DNA of 64,000 nucleotides from an uncultured virus (IMG/VR IMGVR_UViG_3300044627_003959). Taxonomy: Duplodnaviria > Heunggongvirae > Uroviricota > Caudoviricetes. Position 1 is the stretch's first letter; each line of letters opens with the position of its first letter. This document shows positions 20,671-50,545 of the stretch, piece by piece. A program made the translations under genes and the position numbers. Below the pieces are notes generated by a model. That model was not told the origin of the DNA and searched no databases. It saw nothing but the letters and a program-made list of their open reading frames with translations. The stretch lies in IMG/VR virus record IMGVR_UViG_3300044627_003959; one strand, given 5' to 3'.

Positions 20671-21840
20671 ATGTTCACTGTAGAAAAAATTTTGATGGTC
20701 AAGAGTGCCAATGAAACTGAGACTTCTATTAATATGGAGGCTAGGAGAGAGTGTGAAGATATCATGAAAAAGATTTATGATGAAGAGCCCTCCTACTGGC
20801 CTTATGGGCTGAGCATAGCAGCTCATGACGGAGGAGTGTTTATGATTCGCGAAGCGAGCACCAAAAAGCCTATAGGGTTTACAGGGTGGCAGGAGCGTAT
20901 GGATGGTGATGCCAAAGTAGGCTTTTATTCGATAGGTATTCTCCCGGAGTACAGGAATAATGGTTACGCTAAGCAGGCAATAGCGAAGTTAATTTCTATT
21001 AAGGCTGCGAATGTAGATCGTGTAAAAGCTTTGGTTATGAAGCATAATACACCTTCATTAGCTTTAGCTGAATCATTACATATTCCTGTAGTAAAAGCAG
21101 GCAGTACCAAAAAGGCTTCTAATATTAAAACTTTATTAAAAATGGTAGGAGGCGGAGGATTACCTGCTGCAGTTGGTATGGACGCTTTAACTTACGGAAG
21201 AGACAAATCTTTTGAGGAATATACGAATACCCCTATTACAACTAATCGCGTGATACAGGCGTTGGCTAACACAGCATTCGGGTCTTTAATGTTGAAGCCG
21301 GGTCTAGGTATTCCGGAACGTATTGCGGTAGCCGCTGGTATACCGGCAAAAGATGTGGCAATAGCTGCGATTCCCGCTGTACCGTCATTGACTGAAAGCA
21401 TTAAAGATATAGCTGGGAAGGACAGCATGAGTATGGCTGATTTAATAAAAGGCATCAGTCCTACGCAAAAAGCTTTAGGCGCAGGTATAGGAACCGCAGG
21501 TCTTCTAGGTGGCGGTTATTTAGCTTATAAAGGAATTAAAGCTCTTAAAGATTTAGCGTCTGCGCAGCAGCAAGCTAATAGGGGCAAGATACGTGTAGCC
21601 TTACCCACCAAAGATCCCGGGGATCAGGAAACTACTATTGAATTACCTATCGAAGATCTTGAGGTGTCTAGAGCGCAATTTGAAAAGCTGCAGCGCGATC
21701 TTCGTAGAAGAATTAGAAGAGAAACAAAAGAAAGAACTGTTCAGCGTACGCTTGGGGGCTTAATGGAACCTAAAGCAGCAGGCGTTAAAAAGGCTGACTT
21801 AAGTAATATAAATAATTTATTAAATATTCTGTATGCGTAA
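20671..21840 (+). CDS. GNAT (RimJ/RimL-like) acetyltransferase fused to a Gly-rich hydrophobic region; probable virion head protein
   Basis: IGILPEYRNNGYAKQAI acetyl-CoA motif, NTPSLALAESL; KSA/KKA motifs bracket the domain; ATG at 20671. Confidence 0.75.
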   Translation: MFTVEKILMVKSANETETSINMEARRECEDIMKKIYDEEPSYWPYGLSIAAHDGGVFMIREASTKKPIGFTGWQERMDGDAKVGFYSIGILPEYRNNGYAKQAIAKLISIKAANVDRVKALVMKHNTPSLALAESLHIPVVKAGSTKKASNIKTLLKMVGGGGLPAAVGMDALTYGRDKSFEEYTNTPITTNRVIQALANTAFGSLMLKPGLGIPERIAVAAGIPAKDVAIAAIPAVPSLTESIKDIAGKDSMSMADLIKGISPTQKALGAGIGTAGLLGGGYLAYKGIKALKDLASAQQQANRGKIRVALPTKDPGDQETTIELPIEDLEVSRAQFEKLQRDLRRRIRRETKERTVQRTLGGLMEPKAAGVKKADLSNINNLLNILYA

Positions 21841-23683
21841 TTCCACTTTTAAGTTATTGAAAGATTTAAAGAAATCAGCATCCGCTATGGGTGCTGGCTC
21901 TTTCATGCCTGTGCAGCCTTTACCTAATTCTGTAAAGGCGAAGCAAATTGAACAGCAAGAACTGGAAGCACAGCAAGCCGAAGCAGGCGCGGGCGCAGGT
22001 AATGAGCAAATGCAGCAAATGCAAAAAGCACAGGAGGACGCTGTAAAACAATTACAACAGACACAGGAGCAGTTGGTCCAGACTCAGGGCGAGCTTCAAA
22101 ATATACAGGCGCAGACGCAGCAGCAGATGCAGCAGATGCAGATGGATGCACAGCAGCAAGTCAATAAAGCGCAGATGGATGCTGAGTATAAAATGCAGGA
22201 GGAGAAGATTAAGAACCAACAGAAGCTGCTTAGTGTACAAGAGAAGTATACTAGGGCTTTAGGTAAGAACCCTCCGAATCAGTCTCCCATTCTTATTAAT
22301 CAGTTGAAAAGATTAAACAAGAAAATTAATAACTTAAAGATTGCTAGCTCCGTTCCTCCACCTCCACAGCCTAAGCCTGTAAGCGCGCCTTCTGAAGAAG
22401 CGCCTAAACCAGTTAATACAGGCATCACCATGCCTAGTCAGAATTCAGCCATACAGGCGCGTGAAGGACAAAAAAAGTTTGAAGGTATGCCTCACACTGG
22501 CGTAGTTCCTGCCCAGCGAACGCAGCAACAGTGGGACGAGATATCCAAATGGAAGAGGAATAGAGTTCTTAGTGATCCAAAAAATAAGGAGATCGAAAAT
22601 AAAGTTATGTCCGCGCCCACCGGAGTGCCTAGCTACGCTTCCGGAGTGAAGGAGGAGATATCTAGCTACTGGCAAGATCCTAAAAAATACATGGCGCATA
22701 ATAATCCTTTCGGCAAAGGATTAGGCGGCTCTGTTGCTAACTTTTTAGGCGACTTCACAACTGACATCAATAGCGGGTTTTCCAACTTAGCTAAAGGCAA
22801 TCTAGCGCAGGGAGTTGGAGACTTGGTTGGTGGCTACGCAGGTGGCGCGCTTACCCTCGGCACTGGAGGCACCCTACCTACGATCGGCAAAGGTTTAGCT
22901 TGGGGCGCAGGAAAAATGGGCCTAAAAGGCTTAGCTTCTAGCGGTGCTAAAAGTGTTGGAAAAACCGGCTTAAAGGGTTTTCTGCCGAGCGTAGCTAAAA
23001 ATGTTGGGCTACTTGGCTTGACTCAGCTTTCTACTGCATATGACCCGCAAAGCGATGAGGAGCAGGCTACGGAAAACGAAGAATGGAATAATTCTTGGAA
23101 TAACGAAGGCTCCCCAGGGATGGGAGGCACGCCGCTGGCAAGTGGGCAGCAAGCTCCTGGAGATTTTTCTGCGCAACAACAGCAGCAATCACCTTATACT
23201 TCAATGACCCCTTCTCAAAGATTTAGCGCTATGAATCAGCAGGCACTAAATAGTATGTACGCTAACAGCCCTAATATGTATAAGGTAGCTGGAGACTACT
23301 ACAAAGAGGTTACGGAAGGCTTAGCGCCGGAAGACGCCAAGGCCACGATAGATTTTATGAAAAATCAAAAAGAGAAAGGCTTGTATAGCCCCTTGCCTAT
23401 TCTCCAGCGCACATCTTATTTAAAACCGCAAGAGTTTAAAAATGATATCTTTAATCCGTCCGGGCAGCAAGGGTACGGACCAGTAGGTGACTTTATAAAG
23501 AAGTTGATTTTCTCATTCGTTCCCGGCCTTTCTCCACAACCTGACTGGCAGCGTGTTCACGGAAACTTATCAAATAACCAAGCGCATAGAATTGGCGGAC
23601 GTCCTACCGTAGGGGCGCAAATGCCCGCATCAGTAGTTAACAATATGCAGACGCCCAGTTATTTGACCTCTGATTTCAATTAA
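21833..23683 (+). CDS. Gln-rich/Gly-rich probable internal virion protein
   Basis: Q-rich coiled coil, Gly-rich hydrophobic block, KSAS/KIAS/KVAG motifs at domain boundaries. Confidence 0.6.
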   Translation: MRNSTFKLLKDLKKSASAMGAGSFMPVQPLPNSVKAKQIEQQELEAQQAEAGAGAGNEQMQQMQKAQEDAVKQLQQTQEQLVQTQGELQNIQAQTQQQMQQMQMDAQQQVNKAQMDAEYKMQEEKIKNQQKLLSVQEKYTRALGKNPPNQSPILINQLKRLNKKINNLKIASSVPPPPQPKPVSAPSEEAPKPVNTGITMPSQNSAIQAREGQKKFEGMPHTGVVPAQRTQQQWDEISKWKRNRVLSDPKNKEIENKVMSAPTGVPSYASGVKEEISSYWQDPKKYMAHNNPFGKGLGGSVANFLGDFTTDINSGFSNLAKGNLAQGVGDLVGGYAGGALTLGTGGTLPTIGKGLAWGAGKMGLKGLASSGAKSVGKTGLKGFLPSVAKNVGLLGLTQLSTAYDPQSDEEQATENEEWNNSWNNEGSPGMGGTPLASGQQAPGDFSAQQQQQSPYTSMTPSQRFSAMNQQALNSMYANSPNMYKVAGDYYKEVTEGLAPEDAKATIDFMKNQKEKGLYSPLPILQRTSYLKPQEFKNDIFNPSGQQGYGPVGDFIKKLIFSFVPGLSPQPDWQRVHGNLSNNQAHRIGGRPTVGAQMPASVVNNMQTPSYLTSDFN

Positions 23684-23689
23684 AACTTT

Positions 23690-25618
23690 ATGATTCAGCA
23701 AGCCCCAAAAAAAATTTTTGCACTGAGAGATAATAAGATTCAGGAGCTGGATGACCAGGATGCGGATGTAGAGTTAATATCTCCAAACAACTTTTTCAGT
23801 ACGCATATTAACCTTATTCCTATGCACTCAGCGGTGCAGGGACCTCGACTGTTTTACGGTGCGCGCTTCTACAATCAAGCCATGCCTTTGGTCCATCCTG
23901 ATTCGCCTCTTGTGCAGAATCTTGATATGGAAGACAAGGAGGGTAGGTCGTTCGATGAAAAGCTCGGGCGTATAGCCGGAACCGTGACCGCTGATGACGA
24001 CGGCGAAGTAATCGATCTATCTCCTGACTTTGTAAAAGTTAAAAAAGCAGATGGATCAGAAAAAGTTTTTGATCTTTATAACAATTTTCCTTTCAATAGA
24101 AAGTCAGCTATTACGCACACACCTTTAATTAAAAAAGGTGATGTAGTAACACGTGGGCAAATTTTGGCTAAAAGCAACTACACGAGCGACACTGGCGCTT
24201 TAGCTTTAGGCGCAAATGCAAAAGTAGGGTTAGTTCCTTTCAAGGGGTACAGTATGGATGACGCTATTGTGGTTAGTAATAGCTTTGCCAAAAGACTTAC
24301 CAGCGACCATTCTTATACAGTCGAACAGGATTATGACAATGATATCAAGGGAGGTCTTAATCATTTTGTATCTTTATTTCCTACTCAGTTTAAGAAAGAG
24401 CAACTAAAGCAGTTCGATGCTAACGGCGTGGTAAAGCCAGGCACAGTGGTTAGGCAGGGGGACCCGTTAATTCTCGCCACACGGCCTAGAGTTTTTTCCT
24501 CGACTACCGCTCAACTTGGAAAGCTATCCAAGGCCATGAGGCAGAGCAGACACGATAGCTCACAGTTATGGGACTCTGAGTTTGATGGTGTAGTAACTGA
24601 TGTAGCAAAAACAAAAACCGGCTATAAGGTTATTGTCAAATCAGAAGCCCCGGCCCAGATGGGGGATAAAATAGTTTTTCGTTCCGGGCAGAAGGGAGTT
24701 ATTGCTAACATTTTATCTGACGATCAAATGCCGCGCACTAAGGCTGGCGAGGCCCTGGAGGTTCTGCTGAATCCTCTGGGGATTCCGTCCCGCGTGAATA
24801 ACGGAATTATATACGAATTATTATTGGGTAAGGCGGCAGCTAAATTAGGCAAGCCAATTAAAGTTCCTAGCTTTAATAAAAAAGGTGAAAAGTGGTATGA
24901 CTTTGTAGCCAAGACGCTTCAGGATGCTGGGTTGGCTGAGACGGAGGAGGTCTTTGACCCTATGTCTAACAGATTGCTTGAAAATCCTATAACTGTTGGT
25001 GTAGGTCATGTTTTGAAATTACATCACACTTCGGCTTCAAAAGCATCCGCGCGCGGGCAGGGCGGTTATGATTTAGATCAACAACCATTGAAAGGCGGCA
25101 GCGAGGCAGCTCAAGCTAAAAGACTGTCTGGTTTAGAAATTCACAGTTTACTATCCGCTGGTGCGTACAAAACTCTTAAGGAGGGCTCAACACTAAGAGG
25201 ACAGAAGAATGACGAGTACTGGCGCGCATTACGTCAGGGGTATAAGCCTAAACCTCCAGGCACACCTTTTGTTTGGGAGAAATTCCAGACACTGCTTACT
25301 GGCGCAGGCTTGCACGCTAGAAAAATAAATGGAGGTAAATTACGCCTTGGTCCTTTCACAGATGACGAGCTCAATAAACGTAATCCGATGGAAATTAAAT
25401 CAGGCGATCTTGTGGACATGAACACCATGGACCCCATTCCCGGCGGGCTATTTGATCAATCCATTGTAGGTAACAACAGGTGGGGTAAAATCTCGATTCC
25501 TTTTTCCGTTCCTAATCCTGCGTTTGAATCTTCAATACGTCACCTTTTGGGTTTGACCGAAAAGGATCTTAGAAAGATATTGTCCGGAGAAATGGAACTT
25601 CCTCCACATTTAAGATAA
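23690..25618 (+). CDS. Phage RNA polymerase: beta C-terminal half fused to the beta' N-terminal segment
   Basis: NLIP..H..GPRLFYGA, GYSMDDAIVVS, GDKIVFRSGQKGVI, LLNPLGIPSRVN, LKLHH, QQPLKG; then GGLFDQSIVG-NNRWGKISIP matching the beta' start. Confidence 0.93.
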   Translation: MIQQAPKKIFALRDNKIQELDDQDADVELISPNNFFSTHINLIPMHSAVQGPRLFYGARFYNQAMPLVHPDSPLVQNLDMEDKEGRSFDEKLGRIAGTVTADDDGEVIDLSPDFVKVKKADGSEKVFDLYNNFPFNRKSAITHTPLIKKGDVVTRGQILAKSNYTSDTGALALGANAKVGLVPFKGYSMDDAIVVSNSFAKRLTSDHSYTVEQDYDNDIKGGLNHFVSLFPTQFKKEQLKQFDANGVVKPGTVVRQGDPLILATRPRVFSSTTAQLGKLSKAMRQSRHDSSQLWDSEFDGVVTDVAKTKTGYKVIVKSEAPAQMGDKIVFRSGQKGVIANILSDDQMPRTKAGEALEVLLNPLGIPSRVNNGIIYELLLGKAAAKLGKPIKVPSFNKKGEKWYDFVAKTLQDAGLAETEEVFDPMSNRLLENPITVGVGHVLKLHHTSASKASARGQGGYDLDQQPLKGGSEAAQAKRLSGLEIHSLLSAGAYKTLKEGSTLRGQKNDEYWRALRQGYKPKPPGTPFVWEKFQTLLTGAGLHARKINGGKLRLGPFTDDELNKRNPMEIKSGDLVDMNTMDPIPGGLFDQSIVGNNRWGKISIPFSVPNPAFESSIRHLLGLTEKDLRKILSGEMELPPHLR

Positions 25619-25623
25619 TATCT

Positions 25624-26919: not shown

Positions 26920-26924
26920 ACTTC

Positions 26925-26943
26925 TGTGTTATATATAAAAGAT
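26925..26943 (+). promoter_or_regulatory. TGTGTTATATA-class promoter motif
   Basis: TGTGTTATATATAAAAGAT, identical over 19 nt to 27412-27430. Confidence 0.7.
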
Positions 26944-26969
26944 ACACTAACCTTCTATCTTTTATAACT

Positions 26970-27398
26970 ATGGAAAAAAACCAGACGGAAAGCATATTGC
27001 ATAATACGCCAAATTTAACAGTAGCGAATATTGAGTTCGATTCTATTAATTGGCAGGTAAATATATCGGAAATTGATGATGACTATATCAATCTAGATCT
27101 TATTCCTCTACTTAAGTATAATTTAAGTGAAAACAAAGAATTGTATAAGCAGGCGATAAATAATGGAGCTAAATTAATTTTTAGCTTAAATAAAGAAATA
27201 GAAAAAATAATTAATTTTGATTTGTGTTTAGAATTAAAAAAATATAAGGAAACATTACTCTGTGGTAAGTCGGTGTGTCATTACCGGGTTATTGATGGTG
27301 GCGATAATTTTATTTTTACTAAGGATGAAATATTCCCTAGTTTTATAGGAACTCTCCCAAGTTTAATGTATATTTTTATAAAGGCTAATAGGAAGTAA
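26970..27398 (+). CDS. Hypothetical protein (very AT-rich)
   Basis: ORF track. Confidence 0.65.
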   Translation: MEKNQTESILHNTPNLTVANIEFDSINWQVNISEIDDDYINLDLIPLLKYNLSENKELYKQAINNGAKLIFSLNKEIEKIINFDLCLELKKYKETLLCGKSVCHYRVIDGGDNFIFTKDEIFPSFIGTLPSLMYIFIKANRK

Positions 27399-27411
27399 CG
27401 CGAGTTGTTTT

Positions 27412-31242: not shown

Positions 31243-32109
31243 ATGGCTGGAATAGTTCCAATTTCAAATGCTATATTTAGTGATGCGCCTGATTTTAATT
31301 TTCAGAGCGTCACTGGTGTTACGGGTGTTGCTTTTCATAAGTTCGAAAGCGCATACGTTCTCGGGCCCTCTGCAACGTTGAGTTTAAATGATAGTCATGT
31401 ATATAATATTTATATAAACGAATCAGGTAATAAGTACATCAGCACTGTAGATACTACAATACCTGGGGGTGAGATTATATTTATAGTTAATGCTGGGTAT
31501 ATAAATTTTTCTGGTGCGAATTTTACGGGCGGCGTGTCTTTGACTGATGGCGCTGTGTTGATTGGGCCTTGTTCGGCTAAACTTATTTTAAATGAAGGAT
31601 TTCCTACTTTAACTTCAAATAATAAATCAGATATTCTTGTTTTAAATGGCGCGGATTGCTGCAACAACAGTAAAACTTTATATCAAGTAGGCGAATCATT
31701 TAGTACAGATCGACTTATATACACTTCAGCCGCGTTACTAACACTAGCTAATACTTCTGCTATTACAGAGGGACCTGTAATTATAAGTGGTAACGCGTAT
31801 AATATAACCGAAGGAGTTCCAAGTATTACATCGTGTGCTACAGTTGACTATAATGAAGGTTACGTGTTTTATGACTACGGCGGTTCATCCTATACGATGT
31901 ACACAAATGCCGCTAGTATCAGTTACTTATCAGATGATGTAAAAAATTATAGATGGAAAACGATTGTGACTTCATCAATGTACTCGTGTGCTAGTACTAA
32001 TGATGTTGCTAGTGGTTGCTACTACCGAGCATATGATCCGATTTACGGGCCCTCCGCCCCGGCTACGTTTTTTAATGGTCTCATAGTTGATACTTTAACC
32101 TACTGTTGA
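31243..32109 (+). CDS. Putative fibre/receptor-binding protein, paralog 1
   Basis: Ser/Thr/Gly/Tyr-rich; MAGIVPISN start and DCCN motif shared with 32534. Confidence 0.6.
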   Translation: MAGIVPISNAIFSDAPDFNFQSVTGVTGVAFHKFESAYVLGPSATLSLNDSHVYNIYINESGNKYISTVDTTIPGGEIIFIVNAGYINFSGANFTGGVSLTDGAVLIGPCSAKLILNEGFPTLTSNNKSDILVLNGADCCNNSKTLYQVGESFSTDRLIYTSAALLTLANTSAITEGPVIISGNAYNITEGVPSITSCATVDYNEGYVFYDYGGSSYTMYTNAASISYLSDDVKNYRWKTIVTSSMYSCASTNDVASGCYYRAYDPIYGPSAPATFFNGLIVDTLTYC

Positions 32110-32533: not shown

Positions 32534-33400
32534 ATGGCAGGTTTAGTTCCATTACAAAATGCGGTGGTAGAAACTAGCATTGATTTTAATAATAAACGCG
32601 TATCTAATAATGCGGGTTTTCATAGATACAATGTTTTAGCTTCAGCCGATACCTACTATACTGCCACGGCGTCTGATTTTAATTCAGTTATTGTGTTCAG
32701 TGGTAATGTTACTGTCGAAATTAATACTGGAGCTACAGGCAGCTTAAATTATGGCGCTGAGCTAATTTTGATTAGTAATACAGGCAGAGTTAAAGTTTTA
32801 GATTCTGATACACGCTTTTCTCAAGGACCTACTAAAGCTATTAAATTAATTTATACAGGACCGGAAATAACAGGCAAACCATATAAGTTTCTGTATACTG
32901 GTGCTGTTGCCTCCGTGTATACAACCAATTACACGGATTGTTGCAATAGTGCAGCAAGTGTTTACCAGTTATTGAGGAGCGATGCAGTTGGTTTTGACTA
33001 TTGGAAACTTATTTATAAAGATGCAGAATGCACTACACTATTTAACGGCACAATGACTGAGGGCGGTAGTTGGTATAACGTAATTTCCGGAGTAGCAGGA
33101 CCTGGCTCGTTTTGCGTGCCTAATGATTATACTTCTGTATATAGTTATTTTTATGTAAATTCAGATCTATCCGACCCATCTCCTATATCTTTATCATCGG
33201 TAGGCGGGTTAGCTTCAGGTAATAGCCCTGCTGCGTTTACAGGAAATAAATTCTTTGATGCCCCTTTAACCGCATTGGACTGTTTCAACACTGGAGCTGC
33301 TAATGCGACTTACTACTATAGCAAGAGCGGAGGCGATGGGTCAGTATATCTTTGTAATTTCTCATATGGTTATTTATTGAGCTGGAGCCAAGTTCTTTAA
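32534..33400 (+). CDS. Putative fibre/receptor-binding protein, paralog 2
   Basis: MAGLVPLQN...IDFNN...GFH; DCCN...YQ...LIY; 288 aa, same length as paralog 1. Confidence 0.6.
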   Translation: MAGLVPLQNAVVETSIDFNNKRVSNNAGFHRYNVLASADTYYTATASDFNSVIVFSGNVTVEINTGATGSLNYGAELILISNTGRVKVLDSDTRFSQGPTKAIKLIYTGPEITGKPYKFLYTGAVASVYTTNYTDCCNSAASVYQLLRSDAVGFDYWKLIYKDAECTTLFNGTMTEGGSWYNVISGVAGPGSFCVPNDYTSVYSYFYVNSDLSDPSPISLSSVGGLASGNSPAAFTGNKFFDAPLTALDCFNTGAANATYYYSKSGGDGSVYLCNFSYGYLLSWSQVL

Positions 33401-33550: not shown

Positions 33551-33907
33551 ATGAAAGTTAATCCAGTTTCACAGCTTTACACATTTTTTTCAGGGACTAC
33601 TGCGCAAGGCGCTACTAGTGATGACCTATTCCGAGGTTTTCACACACACCACATGATTCAGGTGAGCACCGTAGGAGCTACAGCTCAGACATTTACATTG
33701 TACACGAGTGCTGACGGAAATGTTTGGTCCGCTATCAGAGACAATACTGATGTCGATAGTACTGTAGCCGGGTACACCGGGACTAATGCTTCTGGCGTTA
33801 TTAATTTAATTGGCAGCTACCCTTATTTCAGAATTGTCACAGGCTCTTCTGTCAGTACAGACCCATTCACCGCTACCATCTACAGCACAAATCGTACTAT
33901 TACTTAA
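33551..33907 (+). CDS. Small beta-rich probable virion protein
   Basis: LYTSADGNVW...YPYFRIV; Thr/Ser-rich. Confidence 0.65.
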   Translation: MKVNPVSQLYTFFSGTTAQGATSDDLFRGFHTHHMIQVSTVGATAQTFTLYTSADGNVWSAIRDNTDVDSTVAGYTGTNASGVINLIGSYPYFRIVTGSSVSTDPFTATIYSTNRTIT

Positions 33908-36900
33908 TGAAGGCTATTCAGCTATTGGTCAACAGCCAATTACCGCCAGATTTACGTGATTATACGCGTGAATATGATTCTAAATCAATAGGATCATTGA
34001 TGGCTGAAGTGGCTAGGAAATATCCGGATCAATATGAGCGGATATCTAAATTCATTTCAGACGTCGGCAGAAAAGCTAGTTATTTTCAAGGCGAGTCACT
34101 CACGCTTGAAGACAACAGACCTGTTATAGATAGGGACAAATTACTATCTGAAATGGATTTAGAGATTGAGGAGGCCAGCCGTAACACTCCAGATAAAGAA
34201 GAATTCGATAAAAATAAAATCGGAATCTGGACTAAATATAATGAAAAGATTCAAAAGGAGACAGGCAGAGAAGCATTAGCTAGAAAAAATAATCTCGCTT
34301 ACTCTGTAATATCAGGTGCTAGAGGTAAGTTACCTCAGCTTAAGATGATGCTCTCCACTCCCGGGTTGTACACAGACGCGCAGGATAATGTGATTCCCCT
34401 GTTTGTTCGTACTTCTTTTGCCGAGGGGCTTAGACCTGCAGAGTACTTAGCCGGTACGTATGGCGCTCGTAAATCTGTGCTCTGTTTACAGCAGGATACA
34501 CTTGTAAGATTAGCTGACGGCTCGTCATTAGCTATTAAGCATATAAAACCTGGCATGAGTGTATTGGGCGCGGATAAGGAAGGAAATACATTCCCTGTTC
34601 GCGTATTGCGTACTTATGATCAAGGACTTCAACCCGTGTATCGCTATACATTTAGACGCGGATGCGGCGGGGGAAAACATGAAGTAGTCTGCACAGCCAA
34701 ACATGCGTTTCTTCAGAACGATTACAAAGCATATAATCATTCTTATAATATATTTAAAAAAGGAAAAGCGCCAAGACCTCAAGCGGAGTTAATACATAAC
34801 AAGTCAGTATACCCGATAGGAGAAAAAAGACCCAGGCAGGCTGCTGTATTGGCCGGAGGCACGCAATTTAACGGGCGTAAAGAGCCGTACGCTCTTATGT
34901 TGGGTATTTTAACTGGAGATGGATGTCTGACAAATTCAGACTTAAGAATTAGACTTTCATGTGCTGATGAAAGCATGATAAGTGATTTGGCAGAATATAT
35001 GCATAGTCTGAATTTAAAAATATCAGTTCGTAGAACTGCGGATAATTTCGATTGGGAAATTGTAGCATCTAATTATACAGCTGCGGGTAATAAGAGTATT
35101 CAGAAAGGTATACAAGGTTTTGTCGCTGAAGCCCGCATGCCGCACAAGCAGATTTTAATAGATGAAGGTTTGGCGTTCCATCGCGCTGAAACTAAAAAAC
35201 TTCCTGCTAATATACATGAATGGGATAATGAATCTGCTGCTGCGTATATTGCAGGATTGCTCGCTACTGACGGTTCTATATATTTTGATGCAAACACAGG
35301 ATATCCTCGTGTGTCATTTGCTATGACCGCTAAAGATGTGATATTCGGCTTACATAAATTATTACAGCACAGATTTGGTGTTTATGGTACAGAAATATTT
35401 TTCCGTGACGAGGGAGGATTTGGATCTAGTTCCTCATTAAGAAAAAACCGTTTATGGGAATTTAGTATAACGACGGACACAGGCATTAAAAGGCTGCTGT
35501 CCTCGCTACCTCCTATCCCAGGTTGCAAAGAAAATAAAAGACAACAAGCGCTACTAAATAAGCTTAAACAAAAAAATCCATATCCCAAGGCTCGTTTAGA
35601 ATTTGTTAAAGACGAAGGTTTGGCGCATTGTTATGATATTGAAGTGGATCATCCAGACCATCTGTTCGTATTAGATTCTGGGCTTATTACAAGCAACTCG
35701 ACCAAGCGGGCAACCGCAAAAGGCGGTGACTTAGCTAAGCAAATGGTACAGTCTGCCGCTCGCCTTGTTGTGGCTGAAAATGATTGCGGCGCTGCTAACG
35801 GTATCGATTTGAGTATGGACGATAAAAGCCTCAGGGGTCGCGTGCTAGCTAGGGATTTTGGAGACGTATCTGCGGGTACAGTTTTAGACAAGAACGCGTT
35901 AGCATCTCTTAGAAAAAAGGGAGCTGAAAATATTATTGTTCGCAGCGCTATGACATGCCAAGCGAAAGAGGGAGTATGTGCTAAGTGTATGGGTTTAAAC
36001 GCTTTAGGTAAATTTCCATCTAAAGGAGACGCGGTGGGTATTACTGCTGCGCAGGCTATTGGCGAGCCTATTACGCAAGGAGCTTTAAATGTTAAACATC
36101 AAGGCGGCGCGGCGGGAGCCAGCAACAGATTTGCAGGCTTTTCTGTTATTAATCAATTTGTGCAGACCCCTGACACATTCCCAGATAAGGCTGTATTATC
36201 CAAAAAGGACGGTCAAATTAATAGTATAATAGAAGCCCCGCAGGGAGGCTACTATGTCACAGTGGATAATGAACCGCACTACGTTTCTCCTGGTTACCCT
36301 GTTACCGTTAAGGTAGGAGATCGCGTGGAGGCCGGAGATATGGTTTCCGAAGGCTTGGCGGATCCTGGGGAAATAGTGGAACTACGCGGGTTAGGCGAAG
36401 GTAGGAAATATTACGCTGATAAATTAAAGCAGTTACTGGATGACTCGGGTATGGAAACTGACCGGCGCAATACAGAACTAATGTCCAGAGCCGCGTTGGA
36501 TCATCTGCAGATTACCGATGTAAAAGAAGGCGATGAATATTTACCTGATGACGTAGTTAGCTACTCATATTTTTCTAATAGGTACACACCACCTAAAGAT
36601 ACGCTTAAAGTCAAAACAGATAAATCTATTGGCACATTCTTACAATCCCCGGTGTTGCACTACACCATAGGTACTAAGATCACGCCGAAGATATCAAAAC
36701 ATTTAACGAGCACCGGGTTTAATGAAGTTTTTTCAAGCACGGAGTCCCCGACATTTAAACCTCACATGGTACGTCTCCGAGCGGCCACACACCATGGTAC
36801 AGATTGGCTTGCTTCAATGCACACTTCTTATTTAAAGAAACAATTAAGCGATGCCGCTATCAGGGGCGAAGAAACAAATATAGAAAGTAATATTCATTTT

Positions 36901-36963
36901 GCGCCCAGACTTGCAATTGGTGCTAATTTCGGCGAAAATGTAGAACTTACAGGCAAATTTTAA
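33907..36963 (+). CDS. Phage RNA polymerase beta' C-terminal fragment, intein-containing
   Basis: SGARG, SFAEGL..AEY..GTYGARK (bridge helix), DCG, RSAMTC...GVCAKC Zn site, AAQAIGEPITQ..LNVKHQGG trigger loop. Confidence 0.95.
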   Translation: MKAIQLLVNSQLPPDLRDYTREYDSKSIGSLMAEVARKYPDQYERISKFISDVGRKASYFQGESLTLEDNRPVIDRDKLLSEMDLEIEEASRNTPDKEEFDKNKIGIWTKYNEKIQKETGREALARKNNLAYSVISGARGKLPQLKMMLSTPGLYTDAQDNVIPLFVRTSFAEGLRPAEYLAGTYGARKSVLCLQQDTLVRLADGSSLAIKHIKPGMSVLGADKEGNTFPVRVLRTYDQGLQPVYRYTFRRGCGGGKHEVVCTAKHAFLQNDYKAYNHSYNIFKKGKAPRPQAELIHNKSVYPIGEKRPRQAAVLAGGTQFNGRKEPYALMLGILTGDGCLTNSDLRIRLSCADESMISDLAEYMHSLNLKISVRRTADNFDWEIVASNYTAAGNKSIQKGIQGFVAEARMPHKQILIDEGLAFHRAETKKLPANIHEWDNESAAAYIAGLLATDGSIYFDANTGYPRVSFAMTAKDVIFGLHKLLQHRFGVYGTEIFFRDEGGFGSSSSLRKNRLWEFSITTDTGIKRLLSSLPPIPGCKENKRQQALLNKLKQKNPYPKARLEFVKDEGLAHCYDIEVDHPDHLFVLDSGLITSNSTKRATAKGGDLAKQMVQSAARLVVAENDCGAANGIDLSMDDKSLRGRVLARDFGDVSAGTVLDKNALASLRKKGAENIIVRSAMTCQAKEGVCAKCMGLNALGKFPSKGDAVGITAAQAIGEPITQGALNVKHQGGAAGASNRFAGFSVINQFVQTPDTFPDKAVLSKKDGQINSIIEAPQGGYYVTVDNEPHYVSPGYPVTVKVGDRVEAGDMVSEGLADPGEIVELRGLGEGRKYYADKLKQLLDDSGMETDRRNTELMSRAALDHLQITDVKEGDEYLPDDVVSYSYFSNRYTPPKDTLKVKTDKSIGTFLQSPVLHYTIGTKITPKISKHLTSTGFNEVFSSTESPTFKPHMVRLRAATHHGTDWLASMHTSYLKKQLSDAAIRGEETNIESNIHFAPRLAIGANFGENVELTGKF
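34483..35697 (+). mobile_element. Intein with LAGLIDADG homing endonuclease (405 aa)
   Basis: Starts CLQQDTLVRLADG; block B CTAKH; LGILTGDG and AGLLATDG; block F CYDIEV..DHLFVL; ends ITSN followed by extein Ser. Confidence 0.95.
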
Positions 36964-43881: not shown

Positions 43882-43887
43882 TAATAT

Positions 43888-44436
43888 ATGCAAGATTTAG
43901 CAGACAAAATAAAAAATGTTTCAGGACAAGCTTTAGATGCTACTAAAGGTGTGGCGGGTAAATCTATGGATTATCTGCAGGCTAACCCTACTCTTGCTGC
44001 TATGCTTCTCGCTGGAGGTGGGTCTGGTCTTTTAGGCGGGTACCTGACATCACAGCAACCAGAAGAAGAGGGGGAAGATAAAGCATCCAGGCGTATGCGT
44101 ATTTTACGTAATGCTCTTTTGGCCGCTGGCGCTGGCGCTGGAGCGGTTGGGCTAGGCTCCATGGGTTACGATAGATTTAGCGAGGCAATTCCCGCTGGCT
44201 CTCTAAGCCCTGTCGAAGAAAAACTACAAAACCCATGGGTTAGAGGCGCGGGCGCAGGGGGTATGGGTATACTCGGAGCCAACAAAGGAAATCAGGCCTT
44301 ATCTTCTTTATTTAAAATGTTCGGTAAGAAGGCACCCCCAGGTGTTGGTGGTTTAGCAGGCTTAGCTGCAGGTGCGGGTGTTGGTTATTTTGCACCAGAG
44401 ATGATTGAAGGAGTTAAAGATACATTAGTTGGATAA
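43888..44436 (+). CDS. Gly-rich membrane-type virion protein
   Basis: Four glycine-zipper-like hydrophobic segments. Confidence 0.7.
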   Translation: MQDLADKIKNVSGQALDATKGVAGKSMDYLQANPTLAAMLLAGGGSGLLGGYLTSQQPEEEGEDKASRRMRILRNALLAAGAGAGAVGLGSMGYDRFSEAIPAGSLSPVEEKLQNPWVRGAGAGGMGILGANKGNQALSSLFKMFGKKAPPGVGGLAGLAAGAGVGYFAPEMIEGVKDTLVG

Positions 44437-44440
44437 TCTT

Positions 44441-45907
44441 ATGAATAAGATACATTACCAGACCGATCAGGAAGATTTACTTCGCTTATGCGATGGTCAA
44501 ATGTTTACGTTTTATGACGGCAATATTAAGTCCGCTGCTTCCGATACTTTCACGCAAGAAATGCTGAAGGAGCACGCACCTGACAAAGATCATTTCATGC
44601 TTCATGTCGTTGCTATGGGCGACCAGGAAACTTACGGCCCTAATAAGAATGGTGATGGTTTTCCTAAAGAGGCGCTAGAAAAATATCATCCTACATTCAT
44701 TAGTGATGGTTGCTTCTTCCGGGAACATAGGAATCGCTGTCAGCAAACGCAGGGTATTGGATCTATTAAAGCATCCGCATATAATCCAAAGATGCGGCGC
44801 GTGGAATTGATCGTACACGGTAATAAAGAAAAAGCAGCCAAGGAATACGAGATGGCCAAATCAGGTAAGGCTTTATCGTTCAGTATGTCATGCCGCGTGC
44901 CTTATGATGTTTGTAACTGCTGCGAAAAGAAAGCCTCGTCCCCGTCTAATTATTGCACGCATCTAAAAGATAGTATGCTGCAGTATCTTCCTGAATTTCA
45001 GAAATACGCGTTTGCGATTAATGATAAACCTAAATTCTTTGATATCTCGGCTGTGGAAAAACCAGCAGATCGCATAGCACATTATTTAGACTACGCTTTC
45101 CCATCTGGAGAAAAGTCTGCCTCCTTCCATGGTGTAATCACTGGGGCGCAGTGGGCTGAATTTGAAGGCGTCAATCTTCCCGGTACAGAATCACATTGGG
45201 AACCTGCACAGATGAAGCTACTCGAAAAATTAGCTTCCGCAGAATATTATATCTACAATATTCTTAATCACAAGTCCGCTTCTTCAGATCAAAAAGCAGC
45301 CTTTGTTCGTGATGTAGTTCCAAACGCCTTTAGTGAAGAACTGGAAGATAAAGATATTGAAAAGTTAAGAACTTTACAAGTTGGTACCATGTGTCGCGAA
45401 TTGGCTAAGCGCGCAAGCATTCTCCCTTTTTATTCTTTTATTTCTTATGCTACCGGTAGAAAATTACAGGATACTAAAGATGATCCTGTAACAAAAAGGG
45501 CCTGCGCTATGCTGCCTGATATATTTAAGAAGATGATGTCTTCCAACTGTGGCTGCGAGTTAGGTAACATGTTTGATAGCTCATCAGAACACGCATGCGG
45601 TTGTGACTCAGCTAATGACGATGAGGTGCAGAACCTCATGGACATGGCAGAAAAGAAATTCGCCATTAAAACTGAGCCAGTTAAGAATCGTGTTATGACT
45701 ATCATGATTGTTAAAGGTGCCAATGAAAAAGCATTAAAATCTTCTAATATACAACTTACAGAAAATTTTGAGAAACGTGCATTAGCACTTGCAGAGACCT
45801 ATGGAATGTATAAAATTAGTGCATTGCAGGATATTATGAAATTTCATGGCGACGAAATAGATGAAGCACAACTTTTACTAACAGTCGGACAAAACCTTGA
45901 TTTATAA
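44441..45907 (+). CDS. Prohead (maturation) protease, HK97/assemblin-like fold with a CxxC...CxH insertion
   Basis: NKNGDGF, FREH (His), GSIKAS, SFSMSC (Ser), CNCC...YCTH, FFDISAVEKPAD; lies upstream of scaffold and capsid genes. Confidence 0.8.
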   Translation: MNKIHYQTDQEDLLRLCDGQMFTFYDGNIKSAASDTFTQEMLKEHAPDKDHFMLHVVAMGDQETYGPNKNGDGFPKEALEKYHPTFISDGCFFREHRNRCQQTQGIGSIKASAYNPKMRRVELIVHGNKEKAAKEYEMAKSGKALSFSMSCRVPYDVCNCCEKKASSPSNYCTHLKDSMLQYLPEFQKYAFAINDKPKFFDISAVEKPADRIAHYLDYAFPSGEKSASFHGVITGAQWAEFEGVNLPGTESHWEPAQMKLLEKLASAEYYIYNILNHKSASSDQKAAFVRDVVPNAFSEELEDKDIEKLRTLQVGTMCRELAKRASILPFYSFISYATGRKLQDTKDDPVTKRACAMLPDIFKKMMSSNCGCELGNMFDSSSEHACGCDSANDDEVQNLMDMAEKKFAIKTEPVKNRVMTIMIVKGANEKALKSSNIQLTENFEKRALALAETYGMYKISALQDIMKFHGDEIDEAQLLLTVGQNLDL

Positions 45908-45936
45908 TTGACATCAGTAATTTTCTAACAGATATT
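45908..45936 (+). promoter_or_regulatory. sigma70-like promoter (perfect -35)
   Basis: TTGACA-N17-GATATT ahead of the scaffold/capsid operon. Confidence 0.45.
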
Positions 45937-45950
45937 CCACAAATCCTCAA

Positions 45951-47177: not shown

Positions 47178-47182
47178 TTACA

Positions 47183-47599
47183 ATGCAAGATCAATCCTCC
47201 ATCAATCCGCAAGTAGTTACAGAGATTCTAGGCTTATGCTTAGAAGCTTTGGATGAAGCTAAATCTGCCTATCACGCAGCCAATCAGCAACAAGCTCGCG
47301 TTATCGAATTGGAGAAGGTCGCTGCAACTACTGTTACTACGCACAAGTTAGACACGGCTCTGGTCCAGCAGACCATCCGTAATCTTGTTGCTAGCTCATT
47401 TTTAGACGCTGAACATTCAGAAAAACTCGCATCAGAAATCCAAAAAGATCCTTCTGTTGCTTTGAGGTTAGTTCAGCGTTTCATCGAAATTTCCACGCCT
47501 CCCTTCTCCGAAGGGCAAGGAGTGCAGAAAAACGCGTCGGAGGAAACAAATCTAGGTGATCCAGATGGATGGGCTAGAGTAATTTCTAAAGGCGCTTAA
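47183..47599 (+). CDS. Small helical head assembly protein
   Basis: KSAY, KVAA, KLAS, KNAS motifs. Confidence 0.7.
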   Translation: MQDQSSINPQVVTEILGLCLEALDEAKSAYHAANQQQARVIELEKVAATTVTTHKLDTALVQQTIRNLVASSFLDAEHSEKLASEIQKDPSVALRLVQRFIEISTPPFSEGQGVQKNASEETNLGDPDGWARVISKGA

Positions 47600-47628
47600 C
47601 CCCAAACTAAACACAAGGAGACACTAAT

Positions 47629-48285
47629 ATGCCTAGATCAGGTCTAGTCAATACTCGGATCAAACCGAGAGTCACAGTTCTTCGCGGCTTCGATCCGAAC
47701 GCCCCGATGACCCTGACCCAGTCGCTCCCTGCCTTCACGGGCGTGTCGTCTAGCACGGGCATCTACTCCGGTCAGCTGGTATCTGCTGCTTGGGACTCTA
47801 CAAAGGGTTCTTATGCATGGGTACTCGGTCTTACCGGTGGCACAGGTGCCAATGCTTCCGTCCCGCACATCGCTCTACAAGATATTGTAGATCAAGATGT
47901 TTCCGAAGCTGGCAAGCTCACCGGGCTCTCATGCGCCGGTCAGTTCGAAATTCAAACGGCTTACTATACAGGCTTTAACGCCTCCTCAGGTAAGGTCGGT
48001 GCTGCTGTCGTTCCCTCCACGGGCACGGTTGGTTCCATCGCGCTTAGCACCACAACTGGCGAAGTTGTTCTTGGTTACGTTACCCGCGCTCCTATAGCCG
48101 AAGGTATGCAACCCGGCACTCCTAGCCAGTATCCCCAGATCACCATCTCTCCGTCCTATACTGGCGGTTCAGGCGGCACTGGCGCTGGTGCTATATTTTA
48201 CCCAGGTATCGACTCCAGCTCTACACGCCCTGCAACGGTTATCACTTTTGCTACAGCGTATAACGGCTTCAAAGTTGTTGCTTAA
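47629..48285 (+). CDS. Probable capsid decoration/cement protein
   Basis: Directly upstream of MCP; beta-rich; GKLTGL....FEIQT...GAAV...G...VLGYV; AGGAG RBS. Confidence 0.6.
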   Translation: MPRSGLVNTRIKPRVTVLRGFDPNAPMTLTQSLPAFTGVSSSTGIYSGQLVSAAWDSTKGSYAWVLGLTGGTGANASVPHIALQDIVDQDVSEAGKLTGLSCAGQFEIQTAYYTGFNASSGKVGAAVVPSTGTVGSIALSTTTGEVVLGYVTRAPIAEGMQPGTPSQYPQITISPSYTGGSGGTGAGAIFYPGIDSSSTRPATVITFATAYNGFKVVA

Positions 48286-48309
48286 TAACCTATAACCTAA
48301 GATAAATAT

Positions 48310-49266
48310 ATGTCGCAAGATGTTAATATTGAATCCCCAGAGGTTTTGAGCAAGAAACTTCTCGACGCGATTTCTCGCGCCGACGACGGCCTGCTCAAAA
48401 ATGCTTCGGATGCCGGTACCCAAATGATTCGCCGTAGGCTTCGTGAAAACGGATTTTCCCGTTTGATCCTGCCCTATAAGCAAGTCTCGGACGCTGACCT
48501 CAACTACCTCCCCGATACCGAATTGCCGGTCATTGTGGAAGAAATGGAGCCAGAATCCCCAGGTGCTAAGGCTATCCCGTTTAATGATACAGCCGACACA
48601 GCGTTCTATCGCGGTGACAAGTTTGTTGTGTATTTTTGTAAAATCACAACTCCCGAGTTTACCAAGAACGTTGACGAGCTGCGTACGTACAAAAATGACC
48701 TGCGTCAGGTGATCACCGACAACTCTCTGAAGGATATTCAGACAGAAGAAGATGGTCGCTTTATTAAGGAAGTGGACCGTATTTGCGCCGCTGGTGAGGC
48801 TGGTCTTACCCAGTCTTACACGATTAATTCCCTGATTACCCGTGACTCATACGCGGAAGCTCTTAGCTTCCTTGAGGATCGTAACCTTAACAACGGCGTC
48901 TTCCTTATGAACCGTCGCACTGCTAAGGACATCCTCCGTCTGGATCGTACGGAAATCGGTGGTGATCTCGCGGAAACTCTGTTCAAGTCTGGTCTCAGCG
49001 GTCTTCAGTCTGCTGAAATCATGGGCGTACGTCACATCTTCACCATGAAGCGCGATCTCGTTGCTGATGGTGTTGTGTACCAGTTCGCTGAACCGAACTT
49101 CCTCGGGCGTGCCTACGTTCTCCAGGACGTCACCATGTATGTTGAGAAGAAGAAGGACATCCTTCGCTTCTCAGCTCAAGAAAAGATTGGTATCACGTTT
49201 GCTAACGTGGCTGGTCTTAACAAGGTGAACTTCTCGGGTACCCGTTACTCCGCAGCTGTTGCTTAA
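48310..49266 (+). CDS. Major capsid protein (HK97 fold, inferred)
   Basis: Position after protease/scaffold/decoration; IRRRLRENGFSRLILP, IQTEED..F, FLMN, FAEPNFLG, EKIGITFAN; C-biased codons and a strong terminator behind it. Confidence 0.82.
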   Translation: MSQDVNIESPEVLSKKLLDAISRADDGLLKNASDAGTQMIRRRLRENGFSRLILPYKQVSDADLNYLPDTELPVIVEEMEPESPGAKAIPFNDTADTAFYRGDKFVVYFCKITTPEFTKNVDELRTYKNDLRQVITDNSLKDIQTEEDGRFIKEVDRICAAGEAGLTQSYTINSLITRDSYAEALSFLEDRNLNNGVFLMNRRTAKDILRLDRTEIGGDLAETLFKSGLSGLQSAEIMGVRHIFTMKRDLVADGVVYQFAEPNFLGRAYVLQDVTMYVEKKKDILRFSAQEKIGITFANVAGLNKVNFSGTRYSAAVA

Positions 49267-49295
49267 TTCTAACTTTAATTAGTTAGTTTTTAATT

Positions 49296-49327
49296 GGGCC
49301 GTAGGACTAAAATCCTACGGCCCTTTT
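49296..49327 (+). terminator. Intrinsic terminator after MCP
   Basis: GGGCCGTAGGA-CTAAAA-TCCTACGGCCC-TTTT. Confidence 0.85.
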
Positions 49328-49336
49328 ACTTTACTA

Positions 49337-49365
49337 TTGGCACAACGTACATTACATTGTATAAA
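49337..49365 (+). promoter_or_regulatory. sigma70-like promoter, probably leaderless
   Basis: TTGGCA-N17-TATAAA; ATG 7 nt downstream at 49373. Confidence 0.5.
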
Positions 49366-49372
49366 TACTATT

Positions 49373-50545
49373 ATGAGTAATCATTTATCCTCAAACATGG
49401 ATTTCATTAGTTCGTTTGTTACCGTTTGCTACGAAAATGGTTTGAACGAAAAACAAGCGTGCGCATTATTTGACGACTACGCCAAAAACGAATTTTATTT
49501 AAATGACAAAGATTTTAAAGAGGGATTCGACAATACCGTCAAGCAGGCCGCAGGTGTCGGCGGTGCCTTATACAATTTAGCCAAGGCAATCGGGACTGTA
49601 GCTATGAAACATCCTAAAATCAGCTTACCTGTAGGTGGCAGTTTAGCTGCTGGTGCGCTAGCGCCTGAAGGTATTTTACCAGATGATTATTCTGGTGGGG
49701 TACTAGCGGGTGGTGCGTTAGGTGGTTTACTGGGGCTTCTAGCCACAAAAGGTAAAGGGCTCGGTACCGCAGTTAAACGCTTAGGAACAGCGGCCACGCA
49801 AGGAGGCACGGGACGCACAACAACAGCACAAGGACTTAAGCTTTTAACACAGCCAAAATTATGGCGCGGTGTAGGCACAGGCGCGGCATCTGGAGCTGCT
49901 GCTGTTGGTGTTAATAAATTAACAGATTTTATTTCTAATATCCATCCAAACATTCCACCTGCCTTCAGAGTTCCCAGCTCAGCTGGAAAAGAGCAGAGTT
50001 CTAGGTCTGTTATGTCTAACCCTTATGAATTGCCCAATGAAGTAATGGCTAGGAATGTTGCAGGATTGAATACTTCCGGCGGCGCTTCCGATGTTTTATC
50101 CGGTAAAAAACAACAGCTTATAGAGCTGGAAAATAAAATTAGCGAGATGCAGAGAAGTCTCCCTATAGCTAGCAATCCCTCTGCCTATTCTGAACGTCTA
50201 GCTTTACAAGCACAACTTGATAACCTTAAAGAACAAAGAAATTTAATCTCTTCTAGTATAGATAGCGAAGCTCAGAATTTGGCGAACGAAAGTCAGATGG
50301 CTAGGGCCAATGCTTTAGAAAGACAAGACGCCGCTTCTAGGGGAGTACAGACGTATCAAAATGAGTATGAAAATTTAATGCGTAGACAACAAATAGAACA
50401 AGGCGGCGGAATCGGTGGTTCTTTAATGGGAATGTATAATCAGTTAACGGGCCTGCCTTCACGCTTAAAAACAATGGCTCCTGGCTACTCCGCCTACCAG
50501 TCAGAGTTAGAGCGGGCGCAAGCAGATCAAGCAGCATTAAAATAA
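49373..50545 (+). CDS. Probable internal virion protein with propeptide, Gly-rich segments and coiled coil
   Basis: FKEGFDNTVKQA|AG marks the switch to Gly-rich hydrophobic sequence. Confidence 0.7.
   Translation: MSNHLSSNMDFISSFVTVCYENGLNEKQACALFDDYAKNEFYLNDKDFKEGFDNTVKQAAGVGGALYNLAKAIGTVAMKHPKISLPVGGSLAAGALAPEGILPDDYSGGVLAGGALGGLLGLLATKGKGLGTAVKRLGTAATQGGTGRTTTAQGLKLLTQPKLWRGVGTGAASGAAAVGVNKLTDFISNIHPNIPPAFRVPSSAGKEQSSRSVMSNPYELPNEVMARNVAGLNTSGGASDVLSGKKQQLIELENKISEMQRSLPIASNPSAYSERLALQAQLDNLKEQRNLISSSIDSEAQNLANESQMARANALERQDAASRGVQTYQNEYENLMRRQQIEQGGGIGGSLMGMYNQLTGLPSRLKTMAPGYSAYQSELERAQADQAALK

Follow-up and report, generated by a model that had tools for sequence, protein, structure and literature searches.

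In phage T4, the prohead protease gp21 cuts at (L/I)-x-Glu sites in gp22, gp67, gp68, gp23, gp24 and the leaders of internal proteins. The general cleavage consensus of herpesvirus proteases is (V/L/I)-x-A|S. For the pseudorabies virus assemblin (pUL26), the available text gives the sites YLQA-T and VQA-S (PMC4498786). The proteases gp175 of phiKZ and gp245 of SPN3US recognize S/A/G-x-Glu and A-x-Glu; as described in the accessible parts of the two sources, many head proteins of these phages are processed, propeptides are long and carry many sites, the protease removes its own C-terminus (PMC5694885, PMC10052503), and gp245 prefers Ser at P1' (PMC10052503). The mapped phage proteases of the gp21 fold (T4, phiKZ, 201phi2-1 and SPN3US) all cut after Glu, according to the same part of the first source (PMC5694885). 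In Bacillus phage G, gp19 was annotated as a head maturation protease in a multi-omics paper whose available text holds no cleavage data (PMC12484599). Here, we analyzed a stretch of 64,000 nucleotides (the window) of an uncultured virus of the Caudoviricetes (IMG/VR record IMGVR_UViG_3300044627_003959), in which a different short motif, K-x-A, recurs in proteins of the head module. A first-pass annotation had proposed that this motif is carried by about 13 proteins and serves as a processing code of the prohead protease. Our analysis indicates that the phage's own prohead protease, the product of gene 44429, quite probably recognizes the extended motif, (M/L/F/I)-x-K-x-A followed by Ser or Ala, and would cut after Ala (genes are named after their start positions; for coordinates see Table 1).

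All long open reading frames (ORFs) of the window are located on the + strand, and almost none of its structural genes is recognized by PHROGs or Pfam. For the statistics, 70 non-overlapping ORFs were used, the expected motif count of each protein was obtained from 5000 composition-preserving shuffles, and local composition was controlled by shuffling inside 15- or 30-residue blocks. A K-x-A excess beyond chance was found in 5 of the 70 proteins, all encoded by neighboring genes at 38.2-47.6 kb. These are: (i) 38274 (13 sites vs 4.5 expected, p 0.0002), (ii) 41795 (13 vs 5.4, p 0.001), (iii) the protease 44429 (15 vs 4.0, p 0.0002), (iv) 45951 (12 vs 5.8, p 0.0076, a value that alone fails multiple-test correction) and (v) 47183 (5 vs 0.8, p 0.0006). 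The pooled count for the five proteins is 58, against about 19.5-20.5 expected from whole-protein, 15-residue and 30-residue block shuffles (z 9-10), and for K-x-A-S it is 19 vs 1.5. In an unbiased scan of a-x-b motifs, K-x-A tops the five proteins (p 1e-11) and is outside the five highest-listed motifs in the other 65. When the motif was restricted to K-x-A-[SANGD], the 38.2-47.6 kb block was the only enriched one (38 vs 9.0), with the early block (10 vs 11.5), the 20.6-38.2 kb block (12 vs 12.5), the 47.6-50.6 kb block (2 vs 1.8) and the tail block (8 vs 8.2) at background; the protein called at 20632 is marginal (5 vs 1.3, p 0.012). The refined form [LIMFV]-x-K-x-A-[SANGT] occurs 14 times in the five proteins (1.7 expected) and 9 times in the other 65 (9.4 expected), and 4 of these 9 hits are situated in residues 1-30 of head-region proteins, namely 20632, 21833, 36966 and the capsid protein.

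The signal is thus real, but narrower than first claimed. The copy numbers given at first pass were accurate (the counts obtained here are 13 in 38274, 13 in 41795, 12 in 45951 and 15 in the protease, for which the first pass used the start at 44441), and the comparison with composition-shuffled controls that it had proposed separates the enriched head block from early and tail genes, which are at background. The figure of about 13 proteins was an overcount, because only the 38.2-47.6 kb block is enriched, and the supposed rarity of K-x-A in sheath, tube and fibre proteins did not hold, as the tail block is at expectation (22 vs 22.3) with no depletion.

Helices predominate in the enriched proteins, Ala and Lys are abundant in them, and visible internal repeats occur in some of their relatives, as would be expected if the excess had no function of its own and arose from composition, the periodicity of helices or internal duplications. 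This is highly improbable. Block shuffles that keep the local composition leave z at ~10, while in the five proteins none of A-x-K (14), K-A (23), A-K (13), K-x-x-A (21), K-x-x-x-A (18), R-x-A (8), K-x-G (7), K-x-S (9) or E-x-A (25) exceeds expectation; an artefact of composition or periodicity was rejected on these grounds. Moreover, the additional conservation described below is confined to the Lys and Ala positions, the K-x-A contexts within 41795 are diverse in sequence, and the motif recurs in non-homologous proteins and in 18 loci.

These loci were defined by a rule set in advance (ORFs on the same strand that are at least 60 amino acids (aa) long and start within 6 kb of a protease match), and all 400 a-x-b motifs were ranked blindly in each of them. 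L016 and L017 (copies of L003 and L004) and L026 (identical to L025) were excluded as duplicates. K-x-A ranked first in 16 of the 18 loci, including those of Salmonella phage Arash and Vibrio phage D69, and second in the remaining 2; the pooled count is 811 vs 396.8 expected, over a range that reaches down to ~32% protease identity. For D69 and Arash, the ranges of an initial a-x-b scan had been picked after the per-ORF results, and the fixed-rule figures are the reliable ones. Around gp19 of phage G, K-x-A was again first (29 vs 15.1). Applied to T4 as a positive control, this blind scan placed I-x-E first and L-x-E fourth; when only gp67, gp68, gp21 and gp22 were considered, they ranked first and second. 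By these sequence statistics, K-x-A is a real clade-wide code.

On the genome scale, the code is restricted to few proteins. Among the 260 ORFs of Arash, the most enriched are gp220, gp222 (the protease) and gp223, followed by gp230 and gp242, both marginal; gp220 and gp223 are the large genes flanking the protease. Five of the 238 ORFs in a complete related record (G002) have p<0.01, and three of these are the protease (14 vs 3.1) and the orthologues of 38274 (14 vs 5.7, 30% identity) and 41795 (10 vs 3.7), the enriched orthologues being just 30-50% identical to the window proteins. With only 3-5 enriched proteins per genome, the motif marks a small, protease-centered set and not a large cargo. 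The proposal that it accompanies a large set of ejected proteins and labels packaged orphans is therefore not upheld, and the background count of the refined motif elsewhere in the window (see above) agrees with this. Another of the enriched ORFs of G002 (114972-116585, with a 2H phosphoesterase domain) has an excess of bare K-x-A that falls to 2 vs 1.1 with the P1' filter, and it was treated as chance. The rest of the Arash genome is slightly under expectation (218 vs 247.6), a possible sign that other proteins avoid the motif; the window is not depleted in this way (98 vs 99.8). Arash gp242 (L015:34466-35335) and a D69 protein (L001:36269-37120) are homologues of ~285 aa (45% identity) with 8 and 10 sites, respectively. 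They are encoded far from the head module, past the tail genes, and have no homologue in the window, and a similar 350-aa ORF was found in G002 at 147626-148678.

The conservation of the sites, which the first-pass annotation had suggested checking in homologues, was compared for the five proteins between the window and loci L003 and L004 (81-86% identity to the window; these are close kin and hence not independent of it). The motif Lys is kept in 94% of cases, against 75% for other Lys residues (Fisher p 8e-5), and the motif Ala in 93%, against 63% for other Ala residues (Fisher p 5e-9). The middle residue, kept in 77% vs 74% overall, is at background. On these alignments, K-x-A is under residue-specific purifying selection. 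An extended profile was built from 510 sites pooled from 50 enriched proteins of 16 loci. Besides the motif-defining Lys at P3 (3.77 bits) and Ala at P1 (3.05 bits), it shows M/L/F/I at P5 (53%, 0.58 bits), a preference for Glu at P4 (22%, 0.25 bits) and, at P1' (0.63 bits), Ser in 34% (4.7-fold enriched) and Ala in 17% of the sites, and there is no preference from P2' to P5' (0.12 falling to 0.02 bits). Information that spans P5-P1' and is gone from P2', together with the preferred Ser at P1', fits cleavage after Ala.

The putative protease 44429 consists of an N-terminal segment ending in K34-S-A36|A, a beta-rich protease domain (~37-213), a disordered linker and a C-terminal domain (259-492) that is entirely helical and has additional K-x-A sites at residues 267, 282, 327, 356 and 429. 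Its AlphaFold2 (AF2) model has a predicted local distance difference test (pLDDT) score of 82, with low-confidence segments at 214-222, 227-237 and 249-251. Model residues 25-211 match T4 gp21 (5jbl_A; Z 11.4, root-mean-square deviation 2.7, 136 aa), herpesvirus assemblins match with Z 5.8-7.8, and the three best Foldseek matches are all gp21 (probability 1.00, although the E of 0.028 is weak). In tblastn searches, the N-terminal half showed ~37% identity to proteins of Vibrio phages D69, D181 and D148 and of Arash, 27.5% identity to phage G gp19 (E 1e-8), and matches to Rhodococcus phage E3 gp77 (annotated as 'prohead protease') and Tonenili. PHROG 18299 (head maturation protease) matches 44429 weakly (E 0.002). 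Curated peptidase families gave nothing: Pfam matched 0 of 66 protease members, NCBIfam none, and a PDB profile search returned 0 hits at E<=1. Judged by the modelled fold, 44429 is a member of the gp21/assemblin class that lies outside every catalogued sequence family. Its own family comprises at least 351 members at E<=1e-5, without names or Pfam domains, on contigs of up to ~220 kb.

The candidate catalytic Ser152 and the invariant His100 may be joined by a third residue, which is Asp in T4-type and His in herpesvirus proteases; here it would be either D160, which is invariant, or H178, which is at least 90% conserved and located 26 residues past Ser152. The latter spacing matches that from S153 to D178 of gp245 (PMC5694885). 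A near-invariant C162-x2-C165...C176-x-H178 cluster (residues 162-178, positions 44912-44962) follows the strand of the candidate catalytic serine, and it may form a metal site not described for gp21. In L004, the protease gene (L004:8309-11014) carries a 415-aa intein (Cys first, Asn last, Cys after) directly behind SFSMS. An intein-bearing protease gene is also present in P0025, and the ORF of L007 (L007:6267-9062) has extra length, with 931 aa.

Three K-x-A sites of the protease stand out in 119 aligned sequences. K229 and A231 are both present in 100% of them (flanks 0.47), with Ser at P1' in 103 of 119, and K229-S-A231|S falls in the pLDDT<50 segment 227-237. K34 and A36 are both present in 92% (flanks 0.49), and this site, in a coil, is invariant across D69, Arash, L005 and L006. 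K267/A269 are kept in 84% (flanks 0.44). The protease is thus joined to its C-terminal extension through a predicted release site, as in the herpes-type arrangement. Herpes-like sharing of this extension with the scaffold was rejected, since the best BLASTP match between residues 232-492 and the scaffold-like 45951 has E 8.1. The motif statistics suggest that 44429 would cleave head proteins, and itself, at a short motif.

Among the candidate substrates, 38274 is predicted to be a multiply cleaved head-core or cargo protein. In L004, 12 of its 13 sites are kept, and its C-terminus shows weak similarity to Arash gp218. No family or fold was found for it in searches that included Pfam and PHROG, and the protein atlas gave no usable match; the atlas models of 38274 and 21833 have pLDDT 0.34 and 0.42. 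The second large candidate, 41795, was modelled by AF2 with pLDDT 72, and searches of BFVD and the PDB with this model gave no match of fold at E<=0.001. Its 66 homologues (30-64% identity) hold 829 K-x-A sites vs 323 expected, of which only 9 are in the last 30% of the length. The label 'polyprotein cargo' given at first pass is unproven, because 38274 and 41795 are without recognizable fold or family. Protein 45951 contains 15% Ala and has a net charge of -28; 11 of its 12 sites are kept in both L003 and L004, and the last one (FKQA|S, residues 393-395) lies 13 residues before the C-terminus. Its positional equivalents, Arash gp223 and D69 0271, have 8 and 10 sites, respectively. Position, composition and site density together suggest that 45951 is scaffold-like. 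In the neighboring 47183, all 5 sites are kept in L003 and L004.

The capsid protein 48310 is homologous to Arash gp226 ('major capsid protein') and was matched by NCBIfam capsid_Caudo_2 (E 3e-9, 36 bits, under the 80-bit cut-off), PHROG 2522 major head protein (E 1.7e-5) and Pfam Phage_capsid (E 0.04; PF05065 is annotated on some of the 120 homologues listed). The first-pass annotation was right in placing a single K-x-A near its N-terminus (LLKNA|SD, residues 30-32). Of 121 sequences, 110 have K30, 111 have A32 and 102 have S33, and the neighboring residues are well conserved too. The capsid proteins of E3 (L010:12112-13113) and Tonenili (L011:13127-14128) have AKLA|S and AKLA|H, respectively, at residues 45-47, where a cut would yield 286 residues, the same as predicted for 48310. 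The head modules of these two phages have no K-x-A excess despite the K-x-A in the capsid protein.

Several leader strings had been quoted at first pass. Three of their occurrences are not leaders: EKLA|S is at residues 266 of 44429 and 80 of 47183, and one LKQA|G is at 117 of 45951. VKSA|N of the GNAT protein 20632/20671 holds, and for this protein the leader prediction is borne out family-wide. The TTG start called at 20632 is probably wrong, as the closest homologues begin at ATG 20671. Of 150 representative homologues, 110 carry K-x-A within their N-terminal 35 aa (73% vs 22% in shuffles), and K-x-A-[SANGT] is found there in 63% vs 8% (shuffled maximum 15%). Most of the leader Lys residues fall at positions 3-14, P1' is occupied by Ser in 54 of the 110, and the GNAT domain was present in all 15 homologues scanned. 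A leader of variable length with a conserved protease motif is what characterizes T4-type targeting leaders, and the GNAT protein is accordingly a candidate packaged enzyme with a trimmed leader.

The GNAT family occurs in 8 of 9 protease-bearing records, and the invariant residue of the motif is a lysine. K-x-A could hence be the target of another enzyme, either through lysine modification by the GNAT protein or through cleavage by a host protease. This is very unlikely. No match to the GNAT family was found among 50,697 phage records, by which it is undetected in Arash, D69 and phage G, yet all three are enriched in K-x-A; the GNAT protein itself bears the motif as an N-terminal leader, which fits a substrate better than a writer; and in all loci the enrichment follows the protease gene. 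A causal role of GNAT in the motif was rejected, as the family is in none of the phage records, the motif-bearing ones included.

Other leader candidates are weaker. In 49337, both sites are present in the L003 and L004 orthologues (40-42% identity), with the flanks conserved as well; there is no overall K-x-A excess (2 vs 2.5). The start of this gene is probably 12 codons downstream of the called one. The site of 36966 is not positionally conserved, and its L004 orthologue has MEKSA|F elsewhere at the N-terminus. No relatives of 21833 were found in viral contigs, and 21833, 36966 and 49337 were each found in 0 of 5 protease-bearing records.

Several observations weigh against protease cleavage at K-x-A. 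In 41795, 5 of the 13 sites lie in confidently modelled helices, the site-rich N-terminal part is better conserved than the C-terminal domain (0.59 vs 0.50), unlike a disposable propeptide, and in the family the K-x-A ratio ranks third, behind E-x-H and M-x-K. In the protease, several K-x-A of the C-terminal domain are in confidently modelled helices, and the 99% conserved site 192 sits in a beta-strand with Phe/Tyr at P1'; 86-89% of the GNAT homologues also have K-x-A inside the fold, at residues 70-140. As site 192 and these in-fold sites illustrate, conservation by itself is no proof of cleavage. The scissile bond most likely follows Ala, a position assigned by analogy alone. The capsid site is missing in 1 of 7 orthologues (L006), and K-x-A is lacking in the capsid protein of phage G (282 aa). 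In E3 and Tonenili, whose proteases are more distantly related, K-x-A is not in excess (ranks 229 and 7), by which an extension of the rule to actinophages was rejected; they have a weak R-x-A excess, and [KR]-x-A counts are 50 vs 39.2 (p 0.054) and 58 vs 38.5 (p 0.002), respectively. In the paper on the Arash virion proteome, neither 'protease' nor 'cleav' occurs and Table 2 gives coverages of 95.8-100% for gp220 and gp223 and of 84.9% for the protease, and the available part of its supplement lists gene features and no peptides.

Some of these points would suit a repeated docking or targeting motif, K-x-A-S, that binds, for instance, the inner face of the capsid, the portal or the protease, with any cleavage following another rule. 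The better conservation of the site-rich part of 41795 and the many sites in helices favor it, as do the alternating LVKEAS and LEKAAAV units of Arash gp223 and D69 0271, which resemble structural repeats, and the presence of gp220 and gp223 in virion preparations with 96-100% coverage. We consider this explanation unlikely, as the motif is found in places typical of cleavage (the capsid N-terminus, the disordered linker after the protease domain and GNAT leaders of 3-13 residues), the profile information stops right after P1', and no other enriched a-x-b motif is available as the true cleavage rule. Recognition of K-x-A by the prohead protease, the P3-P1 code proposed at first pass, remains the best-supported explanation (18/18 loci, selection, sites at domain boundaries and the fold); the cleavage itself we infer.

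Compared with T4, the locus shares the fold of the protease (5jbl), the location of its gene beside scaffold and capsid genes, many sites in scaffold or core proteins with one at the capsid N-terminus, a P3-x-P1 rule and short N-terminal leaders ending in the motif (here those of the GNAT family), like the T4 capsid-targeting leaders. It differs in having Lys at P3 and Ala at P1, where T4 has Leu/Ile and Glu, and in the ~260-residue helical C-terminal domain and the Cys/His cluster of 44429. With phiKZ and SPN3US it shares split multisubunit RNA polymerase genes, the Ser favored at P1' and, by prediction, multi-site processing of head proteins and loss of the protease's C-terminus by self-cleavage, but Ala is at P1, the capsid protein is small (318 aa) and only 3-5 proteins per genome are enriched. 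The herpesvirus assemblins are similar in their related fold, in Ala at P1 with Ser/Thr at P1', in the order of N-terminal protease, cleavable linker and C-terminal helical extension, and in the site 13 residues from the end of a scaffold-like protein (45951). However, P3 is hydrophobic in herpesviruses, whereas here it is Lys with a hydrophobic P5; there are dozens of sites instead of two or three; the C-terminal domain is no copy of the downstream scaffold-like protein; and the third residue of a Ser-His-His triad is a candidate here (H178). Phage G gp19 has a homologous protease domain and VKTA|A, EKVA|S and LKIA|S at equivalent N-terminal and post-domain places, but it has 300 aa, with ~50 aa past the post-domain sites vs ~260 aa in 44429, and its capsid protein lacks the K-x-A present once in that of the window. 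No published statement of a K-x-A rule was found in a search that left subscription journals aside; no such rule appears in the accessible texts of the papers on Arash, phage G and actinophage capsids, and the last has 0 mentions of 'cleav'. K-x-A most likely represents a cleavage specificity that is new for an already known type of protease.

A maturation pathway can be proposed on this basis. The helical C-terminal domain would bring the protease, in zymogen form, into the procapsid, and the protease would cut itself at K34-S-A36 and, in the flexible linker, at K229-S-A231, freeing a catalytic domain of ~195 residues. It would then break up the scaffold-like proteins 45951 and 47183, together with the N-terminal two-thirds of both 38274 and 41795, into fragments of ~10-140 residues, while the site-free C-terminal domains of 38274 (185 aa) and 41795 (216 aa) would stay intact. 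Removal of 32 residues from the capsid protein would give a 286-residue HK97-fold subunit, and short leaders would be trimmed from a few proteins, among which the GNAT enzyme is the best supported.

Tentatively, and with slightly less than even confidence, this can be extended to a very large, mostly uncultured group of ~120-220 kb phages, reaching Arash, D69 and the 497-kb phage G, in which the specificity pocket of a gp21-fold protease would have exchanged Glu for Ala at P1, Lys being at P3, giving an assemblin-like Ala|Ser rule, and the GNAT enzyme would be loaded, trimmed and probably injected with the DNA. Within this wider proposal, it is the readability of the code from sequence that marks the conserved GNAT as a capsid-loaded enzyme. 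If true, Lys-x-Ala|Ser would represent a second specificity class within the gp21/assemblin fold, and its herpes-like rule would bear on the evolution of the substrate pocket along the phage-herpesvirus lineage. Mature boundaries, scaffold or core proteins and capsid-delivered enzymes would then be readable from sequence for the at least 351 members of the protease family, in a clade whose structural proteins currently match almost nothing. With cultured members at hand (Arash, D69-type vibriophages and phage G), the prediction is open to direct testing by mass spectrometry.

Table 1 Features of the head region of the window. The vertical bar in motifs marks the predicted cut; residues are numbered within each protein.
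Feature	Position	Strand	Details
GNAT acetyltransferase-domain protein	20671..21840	+	Pfam Acetyltransf_1, E 1.6e-8; candidate capsid-delivered enzyme
End of GNAT leader, M-V-K-S-A|N	20701-20709	+	short N-terminal leader
Orphan, 616 aa	21833..23683	+	L-K-K14-S-A|S near N-terminus, refined-motif hit; leader candidate
Orphan, 420 aa	36966..38228	+	I-L-K13-Q-A|G near N-terminus; weak leader candidate
Orphan, 846 aa	38274..40814	+	13 K-x-A in residues 1-661; C-terminal 185 aa without sites
Helical orphan, 554 aa	41795..43459	+	13 K-x-A in residues 1-338; disordered linker 351-410; site-free helical domain 411-554
Putative prohead protease	44429..45907	+	492 aa, numbered from TTG 44429; true start may be ATG 44441
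K34-S-A36, predicted N-terminal autoprocessing site	44528..44536	+	coil ahead of protease domain
His100 codon	44726-44728	+	invariant in 66/66 aligned members
Ser152 codon, S-F-S-M-S	44882..44884	+	candidate catalytic serine; invariant in 66/66 aligned members
K229-S-A231, predicted release site between protease and helical domains	45113..45121	+	linker site, Ser at P1'
Acidic Ala/Lys/Glu-rich protein, 408 aa	45951..47177	+	12 K-x-A; lies between protease and capsid genes
138-aa protein	47183..47599	+	5 K-x-A sites
Putative HK97-fold major capsid protein, 318 aa	48310..49266	+	one site, L-L-K30-N-A32|S33
Capsid protein K30-N-A32 site	48397-48405	+	predicted mature protein of 286 aa
Orphan, 402 aa	49337..50545	+	NEKQA|C at 39-41, VKQA|A at 69-71; weaker candidate substrate

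Upstream of the enriched block, split multisubunit RNA polymerase beta/beta' genes were recognized with PHROGs and Pfam at 23690, 28791 and 33907. The last of these (33907-36963) encodes a beta'-like protein of 1018 aa with Pfam RNA_pol_Rpb1_5 at residues 603-750, and Hint, LAGLIDADG and homing-endonuclease matches at residues 188-495 reveal an intein within this split RNA polymerase gene. Between the RNA polymerase genes, 31243-32109 and 32534-33400 encode a pair of 288-aa paralogues (29% identity, E 9e-13).

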